A stretch of DNA of 64,000 nucleotides. Origin: an uncultured bacterium (GTDB lineage Bacteria > Krumholzibacteriota > Krumholzibacteriia > JACNKJ01). The first letter of the stretch is position 1. Every line of letters begins with the position of its first letter. Positions 12,118 to 39,526 of this stretch are shown piece by piece. Below the pieces are notes generated by a model. The model saw only the letters and a list, made by a program, of their open reading frames with translations. It did no database searches and was not told where the DNA came from. Location: the NCBI GenBank assembly GCA_964627205.1, contig CAZVHI010000005.1:46595-110594 (forward strand), read 5' to 3'. The position numbers and the translations under genes are program-made.

Positions 12118-12567
12118 ATGATACTTTCTCGTGCGAGCGAGTATGCGATTCGCGCCATGGTTTATATGGCCGGACGGCAGACCGATGGTCCCATCCAGCT
12201 GAAGGAGATTGCGGAGGCGGAGAACATCCCATTCCATTTTCTCGCCAAGACCATGCAGGTGCTGACTCGCATTCGTCTGGTGAAGTCCTTCCGTGGACCC
12301 CACGGCGGCTTCACGCTGATGAAGCCAGCCGCCGAGATCCATCTTTTCGAAATCGTCAACGCTTTCGACGCCATCAGCCAGTGGGATACGACCTGCGTCC
12401 TGGGGATCAACCCCTGCTCGGATGACGTGATCTGTCCTCTACACGACGACTGGAGTCCGATCAAGGACAAGATCTTCGCCCTGTTCCAGGAGAGGACTCT
12501 CAACACCCTCGTCGGCAAGATCGAGGAGAAGCGTAGAAAGCTCCGCGAGATGGGTATGGCGGGCTGA
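12118..12567 (+). CDS. Rrf2-family transcriptional regulator (IscR/NsrR-like; three clustered Cys suggest Fe-S sensing).
   Basis: MILSRASEYAIRAMVYMAG...LVKSFRGPHGGFTL wHTH, with cysteines at CVLGINPCSDDVICPLH. RBS GGGAG. The track lists 12112 (GTG), and ATG at 12115 or 12118 is likelier. Confidence 0.8.
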   Translation: MILSRASEYAIRAMVYMAGRQTDGPIQLKEIAEAENIPFHFLAKTMQVLTRIRLVKSFRGPHGGFTLMKPAAEIHLFEIVNAFDAISQWDTTCVLGINPCSDDVICPLHDDWSPIKDKIFALFQERTLNTLVGKIEEKRRKLREMGMAG

Positions 12568-19296: not shown

Positions 19297-19394
19297 GGGA
19301 GTGGATGGGTCCTGGTGGGCCCCGAGGACTTCAAATCCTTATGCCGGGTGCTAAACCCATCCGGGGTGGGTTCGATTCCCACACATTCCCGCCA
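19297..19394 (+). tRNA. selC: tRNA-Sec (selC; anticodon UCA), 98 nt with a long variable arm, encoded CCA.
   Basis: GGGAGTGGATGGGTCCTGGTGGGCC CCGAGGACTTCAAATCCTT ATGCCGGGTGCTAAACCCATCCGG GGTGGGTTCGATTCCCACACATTCCCGCCA. The anticodon stem-loop GGACTTCAAATCC is identical to E. coli selC, and the extended acceptor and long extra arm are typical of tRNA-Sec. Confidence 0.8.
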
Positions 19395-34044: not shown

Positions 34045-35172
34045 CTAGGAGCCGTCGAAGCCGATCTTCGGGTCATAGCGGCGCTCGTCCTCATGGCAAT
34101 CGGCGCAGTCCGGCGGCGTGCCGAATCCCTGTACATGGCAGTCGGAGCAGTCGGCCTCGCGGTGCTCTTCGTCGAGCTCCACGCCTGTGGACGCGTGGCT
34201 GAACTCGGTCGGCTGCCAGTCACCCGGGTGACAGAACTGGCAGCGCGGTTCGAGCTTCATGAAGGCTCCTCGCTGGCCATGGCAGCTGCGGCAGCTGAGC
34301 CCGGCATGATAGCTCGCCAGGGGCCAGCCGGTGACGTCGTGGCTGAATAGGTCGTTCGGGTCGCGGCCGTGGCAGGTATCGCAGTACTCGTCTTCCTCCC
34401 TGTGGCATCGGAAACAGGTGTCGTGCAAGTCGGTCTCGGTGGGAGCGCCCATCGGGTGCAGCTCCTCGCCCTGCACGTGGCAGCGCTTGCAGCTCTGCTG
34501 CTGATGGCACTCGACGCAGTCCCGCTCGTAGAGCTCCGAGTGGTTCCTGTGGTGGAATGGAACCTTGTCCCCCTCCTCGTACTCGGTCCGGAAGACGATC
34601 AGCTCGATCAGCTCGATCTTCTCGTAGTGGGAGTGTTCGCAGACCTCTGACGGTATTCCCGGCACCGCCTTCTCGTGGCAGATCTCGCAGGCGGTGTCGT
34701 TGTCCCACTCCTCGTGGCAGGCGAGACAGTTCCGGTGGTAGGCGCCCTTGAGCCCCGGCTGGGCGATGTCCTCGTGGACGATCTCCGTGGGGTGGCAGCT
34801 CTTGCATTCGGGGTGCGGGTCGTTCGGGGGCGTGAAGTGGTGGCAGGTCTCGCAACCCCCGTTCAGCTGGACCATCTCGGCATGCCGCAGGTGGTTGAAA
34901 CGCACGGGGACGTAGAGCTTCTCCAGCTCGTCCATGATCACGATGCTGGGCCCCATCTCCGCTTCCAGGGCGTCCATGACCTCGTGGCGCGGGCAGATCT
35001 GCGACTTCAGGCAGGGGTTCACCGGCGACGGCCGCTCGCAGTGGTGGCACTCGTTGCAGTCGGGGGTCCTGCGAGTCGCCTCCGCTGCGACGGGTTGCAA
35101 TGCCGTGCAGAGGATCGTGACCACGAACAGTAGAAGGCCAAGCGATCTCTCGACTTCACTTCGCTTCTTCAC
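34045..35172 (-). CDS. Periplasmic multiheme c-type cytochrome with 13 CxxCH motifs.
   Basis: Signal peptide, then CNECH, CETCH, CKSCH, CLACH, CEICH, CVECH, CKRCH, CFRCH, CDTCH, CRSCH, CQFCH, CSDCH, CADCH. GTG start at 35172. Confidence 0.85.
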   Translation of the reverse strand: MKKRSEVERSLGLLLFVVTILCTALQPVAAEATRRTPDCNECHHCERPSPVNPCLKSQICPRHEVMDALEAEMGPSIVIMDELEKLYVPVRFNHLRHAEMVQLNGGCETCHHFTPPNDPHPECKSCHPTEIVHEDIAQPGLKGAYHRNCLACHEEWDNDTACEICHEKAVPGIPSEVCEHSHYEKIELIELIVFRTEYEEGDKVPFHHRNHSELYERDCVECHQQQSCKRCHVQGEELHPMGAPTETDLHDTCFRCHREEDEYCDTCHGRDPNDLFSHDVTGWPLASYHAGLSCRSCHGQRGAFMKLEPRCQFCHPGDWQPTEFSHASTGVELDEEHREADCSDCHVQGFGTPPDCADCHEDERRYDPKIGFDGS

Positions 35173-35321
35173 CGTTGTCCTCTCTTACTGCTCTTCCCCT
35201 TCTTCGCCGGAGTGGCCACCAGCGCTCTGATGAAGACGATGAAGAGCAGGAGATAGCCGATGACCAGCAGGTACTCGATGCCCTTGGTTGCGAAGATGTC
35301 CACGTACTCGAAACTTTCCAT
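35169..35321 (-). CDS. Unannotated 50-aa single-TM protein (putative small subunit of the redox complex).
   Basis: MESFEYVDIFATKGIEYLLVIGYLLLFIVFIRALVATPAKKGKSSKRGQR. Its TGA overlaps the cytochrome GTG start (GTGA), and its ATG lies 1 nt after the NrfD-like gene stop. Not in the ORF track (too short). Confidence 0.5.
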   Translation of the reverse strand: MESFEYVDIFATKGIEYLLVIGYLLLFIVFIRALVATPAKKGKSSKRGQR

Positions 35322-35322
35322 C

Positions 35323-36573
35323 TCATCCCCCCTTGCCTGTCGCCTCGTCCGCCGTCGCCCAGGCGGGCGGATCCCCGAGCACCGGCATCCGGTTCACGAC
35401 CCAGCGGAACACCCAGATCTCGGCGCAGATCACACCCAGTGTAACCTCGATCTCCATCCAGGTCGGCACGTAGCGCACGGCCGCGTCCCACTGGAAGGCG
35501 ATGACCGAGATGTTGAGCCGGTTGAGGATGATGCCGACCATCGCCAGGACCGCGGCGACGCGGATCGTGCCCACGCTACGGCTGCGCACCGCCCGGAAGA
35601 AGAGGACGCCGGGCAGGAGGACGAAGCCGATCACCTCGAGCAGGTACCAGGCTCCCCAGGCCGTTCCCAGCTGTTGCCAGTGCTGGCCGTGCACCAGGAT
35701 GAGCAGCTTCATGAAGAGGTAGACGAAGATCGCGCCGGCGCAGATCCGGCCCAGGCCGACGAGGATGTCGTCCTGGGACGCGTGCGCCCCGCGGCCGAGC
35801 CGGTGGCTGAACACCCTGTGGCTGATCGAGCCCTCGAAGATCACCATCGAGAGCCCGGCGAAGATGCTGGAGACGAAGAAGAGCACGGGGATGAACTCCG
35901 TGTACCACAGGGGATGGATCTTGCTCTTCGCCGTCAGGAAGAGCGCGCCGAGGCCCGACTGGTGCAGCGTGGAGAGCGTGATCCCGAAAATCACCGCGCC
36001 GATCGTCAGCACGGCGAAGATCCGCCGCACGCGCCGCCAGCCGAGCCACTCGGCCACGGCGGGGAAGAACTCGATCAGCTCGGCGAGCATGTAGAGCAGG
36101 AAGTGCCAGGCCACGAGGAAGAGCACCGAACTGACGCCGAAGGAGTTACCGATGATCGGATTGACGACGTTCCAGGGTCTGCCCAGGTCGAGCAATAGCG
36201 CGCCCGCGTAGAACACGTAGGCGAGGAAGCCGTTCAGGACCGTCGCCCGTACGATGGGGTGATACTGCTTGGCGCCGAGGATGTAGACGAGGAAGGTGAG
36301 CACGTAGGCACCGCCGGCGAAGGCGACGCCGGTGACCACGTCGAAGCCGATCCAGATGCCCCAGGGATAGTCCTGGGACAGGTTGGTGATCGCCCCGAGC
36401 CCCTTGGCGAAGCGGATCACAAGCAGGAACACAGCCAGCAGGATGATCGGAATCGAGATCAGGTTGAAGGGCGTCAGCAGGCTGCCCTTGGGCTTCAGCT
36501 CGCGCGCGAGGAAGCCGGCGAGCTCCCGAGGCCGGACGGCTTCTTGCGTCGGCGAACCCAAGGGCCGGCTCAT
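35323..36573 (-). CDS. NrfD/PsrC/HybB-family integral membrane quinone-interacting subunit.
   Basis: 416 aa with about 8-10 TM helices. NrfD-like topology. The start overlaps the FeS gene stop. Confidence 0.8.
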   Translation of the reverse strand: MSRPLGSPTQEAVRPRELAGFLARELKPKGSLLTPFNLISIPIILLAVFLLVIRFAKGLGAITNLSQDYPWGIWIGFDVVTGVAFAGGAYVLTFLVYILGAKQYHPIVRATVLNGFLAYVFYAGALLLDLGRPWNVVNPIIGNSFGVSSVLFLVAWHFLLYMLAELIEFFPAVAEWLGWRRVRRIFAVLTIGAVIFGITLSTLHQSGLGALFLTAKSKIHPLWYTEFIPVLFFVSSIFAGLSMVIFEGSISHRVFSHRLGRGAHASQDDILVGLGRICAGAIFVYLFMKLLILVHGQHWQQLGTAWGAWYLLEVIGFVLLPGVLFFRAVRSRSVGTIRVAAVLAMVGIILNRLNISVIAFQWDAAVRYVPTWMEIEVTLGVICAEIWVFRWVVNRMPVLGDPPAWATADEATGKGG

Positions 36574-37439
36574 GGCGCCTCCTCGCCCAAGGTCTCGCGC
36601 TCAGCGCGTCGCGTCCGACTCGCCCCGTAGAGGAAGGCCGGCCAGAGAAGCAGGATGATGGGCACGGAGTAGAGGAAATCCTGCGTGTGCTCCGGGATCG
36701 GTGTCGTCCCGAGATCGGTCCGGAAGCCGATCTGCTTGAAGGGGACCGCCGAGAGGTAGAGCCACGAGGTTCCACCCACCTCGCACTCGCCGTAGATGTC
36801 GTGAACGTACTTCTCCGGGTTGCCGTAGATCCTGCTCCGCGCGATCTCGACGAGCTCCCGGCGCGTGCCGAAGGCGAGCGCCTCGACGGGGCAGCCCTCG
36901 ACGCACGCGGGAATCTGCCCCTGCTGCAAGCGCTCCGCACAGAAGACGCACTTCTGGATCTTGGGGTTGGCGCTGTGGTACTCGAACTTGGGCACGTCGA
37001 AGGGGCAGGAGATCATGCAGTAGCGGCAGCCCATGCACTTGTCTCCGCGCCAGATGACCGGGCCCCGCCGCGTCTTGTGCATCGCCTGGACCAGGCAGGC
37101 CGACGCGCAACCGGGCTGGTTGCAGTGCATGCACTGCCGCTTGACGAAGAACTCACCCTTTTCCGTCTCGAAGCGGTTGACCACGGTCCACTGGGACGGG
37201 CTCGTCCGCCGTGGCTGAGCGAAGACGCTCTTGTCCTTGATGTCGGGCACGGGGAGGGCGTGGGTTTCCGCGCAGGCCTCCTCGCACTTGCGGCAGCCGT
37301 TGCAGCGCACGGTGTCGACGAGCACGGACAGGAACTCCGTGTCGTCTCCTCGCGCGGGAGCCCGGCCGGAGGCGCGTCCCGGCAGGAGACCCGTCCCCGC
37401 TGCGCCGCCCACCAGTTTGAGGAACTGCCTTCTCTCCAT
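36570..37439 (-). CDS. Tat-exported 4x[4Fe-4S] ferredoxin-type subunit (HybA/NrfC/PsrB/HmcB-like) with a C-terminal TM anchor.
   Basis: Twin-arginine signal MERRQFLKLVGGAAGTG. Four Cys clusters (CNGCRKCEEAC...CP, CMHCNQPGCASAC, CMGCRYCMISCP, CVFCAERL...CVEGCP). C-terminal hydrophobic helix. Confidence 0.85.
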   Translation of the reverse strand: MERRQFLKLVGGAAGTGLLPGRASGRAPARGDDTEFLSVLVDTVRCNGCRKCEEACAETHALPVPDIKDKSVFAQPRRTSPSQWTVVNRFETEKGEFFVKRQCMHCNQPGCASACLVQAMHKTRRGPVIWRGDKCMGCRYCMISCPFDVPKFEYHSANPKIQKCVFCAERLQQGQIPACVEGCPVEALAFGTRRELVEIARSRIYGNPEKYVHDIYGECEVGGTSWLYLSAVPFKQIGFRTDLGTTPIPEHTQDFLYSVPIILLLWPAFLYGASRTRRAERETLGEEAP

Positions 37440-37650
37440 GGCTCTGGAATCTCCTCGTATGGAATGGGACGCGGAAGTTCCCGGATATCATAGTTCAGGG
37501 CCTTTTTAACTTCAATATGAATTCGGGATTTCTTTCTCTAGGATACCTGGATACTTGGGACTGCGCCTCAAACGGGGATCGGAGCAGCATTCGGGGGGGG
37601 GGCAGATCCCCTTGACTCGCAAGCTCTTCGGGCCTAGCCTCGGCCACAGC

Positions 37651-37724
37651 GGGCCCATAGCTCAGTTGGTCAGAGCGGGCGACTCATAATCGTTCGGTCG
37701 CAGGTTCGAGTCCTGCTGGGCCCA
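37651..37724 (+). tRNA. tRNA-Met (anticodon CAT; elongator Met or lysidine-modified Ile2).
   Basis: Acceptor GGGCCCA/TGGGCCC, anticodon loop CTCATAA, T-arm GCAGG TTCGAGT CCTGC. Confidence 0.8.
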
Positions 37725-39136: not shown

Positions 39137-39486
39137 GGAAGCGGACCGGACGGCCGCGGGCCCTCGGGTCCGAGGAAAGTCCGGGCTCCACAGGGCAGGG
39201 TGCTGGGTAACTCCCAGGGGAAGCGATTCCACGGAAAGTGCCACAGAAAATATACCGCCGGCTCCGGCCGGTAAGGGTGAAAAGGCGAGGTAAGAGCTCA
39301 CCGGGCGCCCGGTGACGGGCGTCGCACGGCAAACCCCACCCGGAGCAAGACCAAGCAGGGAAGACGAGGTGGCCCGCCTCGACCATTCCCGGGTAGGTTG
39401 CTCGAGGCGGCCGGTAACGGTCGCCCTAGATAAATGGCCGTCGCTCCCCGCGGGGAGGACAGAACCCGGCTTACAGGTCCGCTTCC
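39137..39486 (+). ncRNA. rnpB: RNase P RNA (rnpB, bacterial type A).
   Basis: P1 GGAAGCGGACC...GGTCCGCTTCC. P4 halves GAGGAAAGTCCGGGCTCC and ACAGAACCCGGCTTA. GGTAAGGGTGAAAAGGCGAGGTAAGAGCTCACC. A T-run follows. Several track ORFs here are artefacts. Confidence 0.85.
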
Positions 39487-39526
39487 TTTTCTTTTCCGCA
39501 GCGCAACCCCTGCCCACGGAGGACGC

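Follow-up and report, generated by a model that had tools for sequence, protein, structure and literature searches.

The stretch of DNA analyzed here (the window) covers 64,000 nucleotides of contig CAZVHI010000005.1, from an uncultured marine bacterium of the Krumholzibacteriia. Its minus strand carries at 35169..35321 a small open reading frame (ORF), hereafter the hmcD-like gene, which starts with ATG, comprises 50 codons, and encodes a predicted single-pass membrane peptide of 50 amino acids (aa), MESFEYVDIFATKGIEYLLVIGYLLLFIVFIRALVATPAKKGKSSKRGQR. Comparison of this frame with its counterparts in other bacteria indicates that it is a real, conserved gene under purifying selection. We propose, with a probability of about 0.8, that its product is a single-pass membrane subunit of the HmcD family in a four-gene Nhc-like respiratory module, where it would dock on the HmcC-like subunit and play a structural role.

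The small ORF is the third gene of a four-gene operon on the minus strand, between the gene of an NrfD-like protein and that of a multihaem cytochrome c. The coordinates, ATG start and 50 codons given in an initial annotation of the window stand, and the translation is identical to the sequence quoted there; the strand, which had been left unstated, has to be added as minus. The same annotation had located the ATG 1 nt after the NrfD-like stop and described an overlap between the TGA and the GTG start of the cytochrome gene. Both can be read directly: a single spacer base (35322) lies between the end of the NrfD-like ORF (35323) and the ATG (35321), and the TGA (35171-35169) overlaps the GTG (35172-35170) by 4 nt, as GTGA at 35172-35169, an overlap which is peculiar to this window. 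Shine-Dalgarno-like purine-rich runs precede the starts of the small ORF and of the cytochrome gene (AAGGGGGGA and GAGAGGA). The possibility raised initially that the cytochrome starts further upstream, leaving the small frame untranslated, can be excluded because no start codon lies between the in-frame stop and GTG 35172. Also, the ORF had been called unannotated. This is correct for the earlier six-frame track and incorrect for public gene calls, as the exact 50-aa product is already present, unnamed, among the genes called in NCBI, JGI, ENA and Logan assemblies.

Conservation of the small gene

An ORF of 50 codons has by its length alone no significance in DNA of 67% GC, and 97 ORFs of at least 40 aa were counted in 14 kb of the window. 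Such a count would suit a chance open frame in GC-rich intergenic DNA that is never translated, and so would the lack of a Pfam match above threshold. The sub-threshold match to DUF4006 (E = 0.041) was rejected as a generic match to a transmembrane (TM) helix. What raises the small ORF above chance is its conservation across phyla. Its base composition in frame also fits coding: GC content at third codon positions (GC3) is 0.78, vs. 0.50 and 0.36 in the other two frames, with values of 0.88-0.93 in the neighboring genes. An RNA element in this 150-nt stretch was considered as well and is unsupported, the Rfam scan of the window having returned no RNA family within 34-37.5 kb.

A word-indexed search yielded 25 homologue clusters sharing a common N-terminal motif (YVDIFATKGIEYL). 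The profile search, exhaustive over 1.84 billion cluster representatives, extended the family to 405 clusters (50% identity) at E ≤ 1e-3, with 115 clusters at E ≤ 1e-10. When one genome per species was scanned, 62 loci with the motif were obtained, which span Thermodesulfobacteriota/Syntrophales, Calditrichota, Ignavibacteria/Bacteroidota, Myxococcota, Gemmatimonadota, Acidobacteria, Krumholzibacteriia and others; conservation thus covers at least eight phylum-level groups. Conservation and synteny of the frame in related genomes had been put forward initially as a check of the gene. In 51 of these 62 loci, the ORF with the motif lies directly 3′ of a pair of HmcB-like and HmcC-like genes on the same strand, at a distance of -22 to +66 nt from the HmcC-like gene. 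Five further loci were chosen through their HmcC-like protein alone (74-81% identical), and the element was present at this position in every one. Four of them (L067, L068, L069, L071) present an ORF of 42-54 aa followed by the gene of a class III multihaem cytochrome, which is the architecture of the window, and a Shine-Dalgarno sequence precedes each of these four short ORFs. In the fifth, the element is part of a 232-aa fusion with a GCV_H domain.

The pattern of substitution points to selection on the peptide. The motif residues F, T, K, and Y do not vary among 68 loci, and yet all their synonymous codons are in use; T12, for example, is encoded by ACC, ACA, ACG and ACT. Positions 8-24 were outside the search pattern in this codon analysis. 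The lack of such synonymous variation had been named initially as evidence against the gene, and the variation is present. Among the five stand-alone cytochrome-linked loci, the ratio of nonsynonymous to synonymous substitutions (dN/dS) ranges between 0.17 and 0.56 (Nei-Gojobori, 34 codons). A chance frame would account neither for hundreds of clusters in at least eight phylum-level groups with fixed synteny, nor for the varied synonymous codons of invariant residues, a dN/dS below 1, a GC3 specific to the frame and a Shine-Dalgarno-like run. On these comparisons, chance is so improbable an origin that we regard it as effectively refuted.

Relationship to HmcD and proposed role

The window peptide appears to be a divergent homologue of HmcD and not its equivalog. 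This assignment is drawn from the PF28260 and NF045712 matches among its relatives and from a profile alignment with a true HmcD. The Pfam family PF28260 ("DVU_0533") is carried by 17 of the 25 first-round homologues, and weak precomputed matches to it exist for the 53- and 54-aa peptides found at the orthologous position in L067 and L068. DVU_0533 is HmcD (UniProt P33391, 5.8 kDa) (PMC10920352), which is "protein 4" of the high-molecular-weight cytochrome (Hmc) complex of Desulfovibrio vulgaris (PMC10920352; PMC4265775). The NCBIfam model NF045712 (sulf_resp_HmcD) matches 22 of the 25 family members (best E 2.9e-7). Its E values are 7.7e-6 for L061, 1.6e-5 for L065 and 1.5e-3 for L067, and the relatives score between 18 and 26 bits.

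A genuine HmcD was found by using the published DVU0533 quantitative PCR primer (PMC4265775) as a DNA pattern against metagenome contigs. The contig L073 carries hmcA-B-C-D-E, and its positions 12155-12298 encode a 47-aa HmcD (MDQAIYTLHEFMLHTKNWTYILMGVTLLVYVGYWLFLTGRDEKIRKY) which reaches 77.9 bits with NF045712 and whose neighbors pass the HmcB and HmcC equivalog cut-offs. Aligned with this HmcD by hhalign, the family profile gave a probability of 62% with 25 sequences and of 80% with 169 sequences (E 1.4e-5, score 24.7), the two T-K motifs and the helices being in register. The small gene lies 3′ of the HmcC-type gene, itself after the HmcB-type gene and on the same strand, in the window as in L073. 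Its product of 50 aa falls within the range of the small single-TM subunits of HmcD/NhcD type (about 35-55 aa). The initial annotation had likened the ORF to these subunits by position and size. Both hold, and the link with HmcD goes beyond such a resemblance to a distant homology.

Several points weigh against this assignment and against the role proposed from it. The window peptide itself has no precomputed PF28260 match, and its only NCBIfam match, to NF045712 (12.6 bits, E = 0.1), stays below the equivalog cut-off of 34 bits; its membership is reached through transitive homology. The shuffles with which the hhalign score was compared (300 shuffles, score 9.1 ± 2.3, maximum 20.1) destroy the hydrophobic segment, and specificity for TM peptides is overstated by this control. 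The 62 species loci were retrieved by the peptide pattern YVDIFATK, and the invariance of those eight residues is partly due to this ascertainment. In the relatives, the small gene and the cytochrome gene do not overlap as GTGA but are separated by 4-181 nt. Translation of the peptide and its physical association with the complex are deduced from the sequence. To our knowledge, the function of HmcD or NhcD has not been established experimentally, and the docking helix is our own deduction. Finally, a table of the D. vulgaris proteome gives HmcD as not detected (PMC10920352).

The initial description of one hydrophobic helix followed by a basic tail agrees with the properties of the peptide. 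Kyte-Doolittle hydropathy peaks at 2.73 over residues 18-36, and AlphaFold2, run with the family alignment, gives a single helix over residues 2-35 with a disordered tail (block-mean predicted local distance difference test 89-96 over residues 11-30). The N-flank is acidic (-2) and the C-flank strongly basic (+7), which suggests an N-out/C-in topology by the positive-inside rule. Conservation is concentrated in an N-terminal juxtamembrane motif, F-x-Y-V-D-I-F-A-T-K-G-I-E-Y, with the invariant core IFATKG.EY. The helix is conserved in hydrophobicity only, and the variable tail in charge only. The peptide contains neither Cys nor His, and therefore offers no ligand for haem or Fe-S clusters. Tryptic digestion of the product would release the peptide MESFEYVDIFATK.

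The role that we infer embraces the translation and topology of the peptide, its binding to the HmcC-like protein, its structural function, and the direction and partners of electron flow. The peptide would be translated from the operon mRNA in coupling with its neighbors, and would insert so that the short acidic N-terminus faces the periplasm and the basic tail reaches into the cytoplasm. It would dock on the HmcC-like subunit through the invariant juxtamembrane motif and the helix. As it has no Cys or His, it would be free of cofactor. We propose a structural role: it may stabilize or assemble the membrane module and provide it with a cytoplasmic handle. The other parts of the module would be a periplasmic 13-haem cytochrome c, a ferredoxin exported by the twin-arginine translocation (Tat) system, and a haem-less NrfD-type subunit. 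By analogy with Nhc, Hmc, Qrc and hydrogenase 2 (Hyd-2), such a module may link periplasmic cytochromes and the menaquinone pool by electron exchange (PMC6303296; PMC8076601).

A more active contribution of the peptide may also be considered, in which the periplasm-side residues D8, K13, and E16 take part in a quinone pocket, or in a proton half-channel where HmcB meets HmcC, and thereby modulate the reactivity with quinone or the coupling of energy. The invariant part of the peptide is indeed the charged juxtamembrane motif, and not the helix or the tail, and in NrfD-like subunits the quinone sites lie close to the P-side and ion pathways are conserved (PMC6303296; PMC8076601). Also, the peptide accompanies HmcC/HybB-type genes whatever the input: a cytochrome (window, L065-L069, L071), a [NiFe] hydrogenase (L061) or GcvH-like proteins (most loci). 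However, Hyd-2 of Escherichia coli and Qrc work with HybB and QrcD, and we know of no such peptide encoded in their operons; the topology, moreover, is a prediction. This explanation, which differs from the favored structural role in degree only, seems unlikely to us.

In most lineages the helix belongs to a longer protein. In 54 of the 62 species loci, it is the N-terminal anchor of a protein of ~231 aa, the remainder of which, after a basic linker, is a Pfam GCV_H domain. In this fused GcvH-like form, the residue at the lipoyl-lysine position varies. A conserved five-gene cluster was observed, typically at L005:3016-7640 and also in L006, L008-L018, L024, L027, L035, L038, L053 and others. 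It comprises a TM-anchored GcvH-like protein (~228 aa), the hmcB-like and hmcC-like genes, the helix-GcvH-like fusion (~231 aa), and a GcvH-like protein of ~290 aa whose N-terminal part bears a motif of four Cys, CVWMTAG..C..C..C. The Pfam GCV_H model recognizes each of these three GcvH-like proteins. Literature searches linking GcvH with NrfD, HybA, HmcC or HybB returned nothing relevant, and the cluster is apparently undescribed. The breadth of the family, its presence in a Hyd-2-like operon, and the predominant GcvH-like fusions were not found in the literature searched either.

The predominance of the fused form invites the idea that the small ORF is a decaying remnant, that is, the 5′ end of an ancestral fusion between an HmcD helix and a GcvH-like domain, in which the GcvH part was replaced by the cytochrome gene. 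The frame would then be kept only to deliver ribosomes to the GTG, and the peptide would be functionless. The window tail "TPAKK" does resemble the "RPAKA" linker of the fused forms, and the GTGA stop/start overlap is a classic coupling arrangement. Nevertheless, stand-alone peptides of 42-54 aa are found in every cytochrome-linked relative examined (L067, L068, L069, L071), with motif and helix kept and with the dN/dS values given above, and the overlap is absent from these relatives although the peptide is conserved. HmcD of D. vulgaris is itself stand-alone, with 47 aa, and a pure coupling ORF would not keep its amino-acid identity across phyla. We thus consider a functionless remnant very unlikely, and retain a structural subunit of the HmcD family.

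The idea of a docking or adaptor helix is suggested by the GcvH-like fusions found elsewhere and by the position of HmcD in D. vulgaris, between HmcC and the cytoplasm-facing HmcE and HmcF. It can be generalized, more speculatively. The HmcD-type helix may be a general docking module of NrfD subunits of the HmcC/HybB clade, by which cytoplasmic partners are tethered to a quinone module that faces the periplasm. In most lineages (Syntrophales, Calditrichota, Ignavibacteria/Bacteroidota, Gemmatimonadota, Myxococcota, Acidobacteria), the partner would be a GcvH-like "swinging arm", and the window peptide and HmcD would represent the minimal, stand-alone adaptor. We consider this general scheme a tentative one, which may well prove wrong. 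If it is true, it would define a new route by which a cytoplasmic GcvH-like carrier is connected with the quinone pool or with periplasmic electrons, and would give HmcD/NhcD a first function.

To a specialist, a divergent HmcD relative encoded behind an HmcC-like gene will come as no surprise, and HmcD is already a family recognized by databases. Our data add a probable divergent member to the HmcD (PF28260) family of small subunits, and would supply the remaining part of an Nhc-like cytochrome:quinone module in this bacterium, which should help the annotation of small ORFs. They also show that HmcD-like helices extend beyond sulfate reducers, and they provide, with the docking or adaptor helix, a testable hypothesis for a subunit long left without assignment.

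The operon and its surroundings

The first gene of the operon (36570..37439, minus strand) encodes an HmcB/HybA-like periplasmic four-cluster ferredoxin of 289 aa (Fer4_11, 1.7e-20; weak TAT_signal). The protein matches the NCBIfam models HmcB (5e-103, 344 bits for a cut-off of 420) and HybA (2e-65). It shows a Tat-type twin-arginine N-terminus (RRQFLK) and, near its C-terminus, the segment VPIILLLWPAFLYGASRTRR, a hydrophobic tail anchor. This C-terminal hydrophobic segment with basic residues corresponds to the layout described for tail-anchored Tat substrates of HybA type (bioRxiv 10.1101/2023.11.02.564894).

The second gene (35323..36573, minus strand) encodes an HmcC/HybB-like integral membrane subunit of the NrfD family, 416 aa long (Pfam NrfD, 1e-11), with NCBIfam matches to HmcC (1.2e-120, 403 bits for a cut-off of 550) and HybB (7e-78). 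This subunit presumably interacts with quinone and pairs with the small peptide. Judged by these scores, the HmcB-like and HmcC-like proteins are relatives of those of Hmc rather than orthologues. The HmcC-like subunit is unusually conserved: its identity with the best 120 database relatives, which come from several phyla, is 68-81% across more than 90% of the length. Neither the HmcC-like protein nor the peptide profile retrieved a relative among PDB sequences, and the sole match (E = 2.8) was rejected as noise. In several loci from metagenome-assembled genomes (MAGs), the hmcB-like or hmcC-like gene is split across frames (L019:4797-5825, L018:4730-6022, L025:4728-5974, L029:966-1695), which probably reflects assembly frameshifts rather than pseudogenes.

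The fourth gene, downstream of the small ORF (34045..35172, minus strand), encodes a periplasmic class III multihaem cytochrome c of 375 aa (Pfam Cytochrom_CIII, 2.7e-12), in which 13 CxxCH motifs were counted. From its GTG start, the signal peptide MKKRSEVERSLGLLLFVV...AAEA aligns with the N-termini of homologues. Its NCBIfam matches, to HmcA and to nine-haem cytochrome c, are partial. The match to HmcA is confined to the last ~75 positions of the model, and the score with the nine-haem NhcA model NF045784 is 31.3 bits, for a cut-off of 640. A cytochrome gene with 50-63% identity to it also follows the small ORF in L067, L068, L069 and L071.

A sigma-70-like promoter match was found at 37487..37515 on the minus strand, ~50 nt upstream of the hmcB-like start. 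It is a match to the consensus only, with 1 found vs. 0.4 expected, and the only promoter-like site in the operon is this one, upstream of the first gene. The genes of the operon overlap or abut one another, and the minus strand shows no terminator-like site between the first and the last of the four. A convergent rpoD flanks the operon on one side and a divergently transcribed Zn-ribbon gene on the other, and the divergent intergenic region contains a tRNA gene (37651-37724, plus strand) just upstream of the promoter-like site at 37515-37487. Elsewhere in the window, a class A bacterial RNase P RNA (39138-39489, plus strand) gave a full-length match of 316 bits between an RNase H-like gene and recJ. 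A tRNA-Sec (19297-19390, plus strand, 73 bits) implies that the organism makes selenoproteins.

Comparison with known complexes

The membrane-anchored GcvH-like proteins share with the window peptide the N-terminal motif, the helix and the position 3′ of an hmcC-like gene, in 54 of the 62 species loci. They differ from it in their C-terminal part, as the window peptide ends after the basic tail and has no GcvH-like domain. Also, the loci of this type contain two further GcvH-like genes where the window operon has its cytochrome gene.

The HybA and HybB subunits of Hyd-2, the group-1c [NiFe] hydrogenase 2, are related to the HmcB-like and HmcC-like proteins of the window, as indicated by the E values given above (2e-65 and 7e-78), whereas the window operon has no hydrogenase genes. 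We know of no such small ORF in the hyb operon of E. coli. In an Acidobacteria MAG (L061:2641-8421), a 49-aa peptide of the family is encoded between a hybB-like gene and that of a [NiFe] large subunit, in the order small subunit, hybA-like, hybB-like, peptide, large subunit, HycI-type protease.

The HmcD of D. vulgaris resembles the window peptide in being a stand-alone single helix of ~47-50 aa, encoded directly 3′ of hmcC, which follows hmcB. In both, a T-K juxtamembrane motif precedes the helix and a basic C-flank follows it. They differ in the N-terminal motif, which is YTLHEFMLHTKNWTY in D. vulgaris and YVDIFATKGIEY in the window peptide. The Hmc complex as a whole departs further from the window operon: a 16-haem HmcA is encoded there before hmcB, whereas the 13-haem cytochrome gene comes after the small gene in the window, and HmcE (cytochrome b) and HmcF (HdrD-like) are absent from the window operon. 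The HmcB-like and HmcC-like proteins also score below the cut-offs. A gene for an HdrD/HmcF-like protein (Fer4_8 and CCG) was seen elsewhere, at L059:2438-6138, directly upstream of hmcB, hmcC and a 45-aa peptide. Because HmcA, HmcE, and HmcF are lacking and the peptide is below the HmcD cut-off, the window operon is Nhc-like rather than Hmc proper.

NhcABCD, known from Desulfovibrio desulfuricans ATCC 27774, acts as a TpIc3:quinone oxidoreductase and combines a multihaem cytochrome with a 4x[4Fe-4S] subunit, an NrfD-like subunit and, as its small component, NhcD (PMC8076601). The window operon shares with it this four-part composition and the lack of cytoplasmic subunits (PMC8076601). The gene order of NhcABCD was observed in a Syntrophales MAG (L065:2694-6111), where a class III cytochrome gene with nine CxxCH motifs is followed by hmcB, hmcC and a 36-aa peptide. 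The window operon has the order B-C-D-cytochrome, with 13 haems vs. 9, and its small peptide can be likened to NhcD by its place in this composition. Among these systems, NhcABCD is the closest in composition to the window operon.

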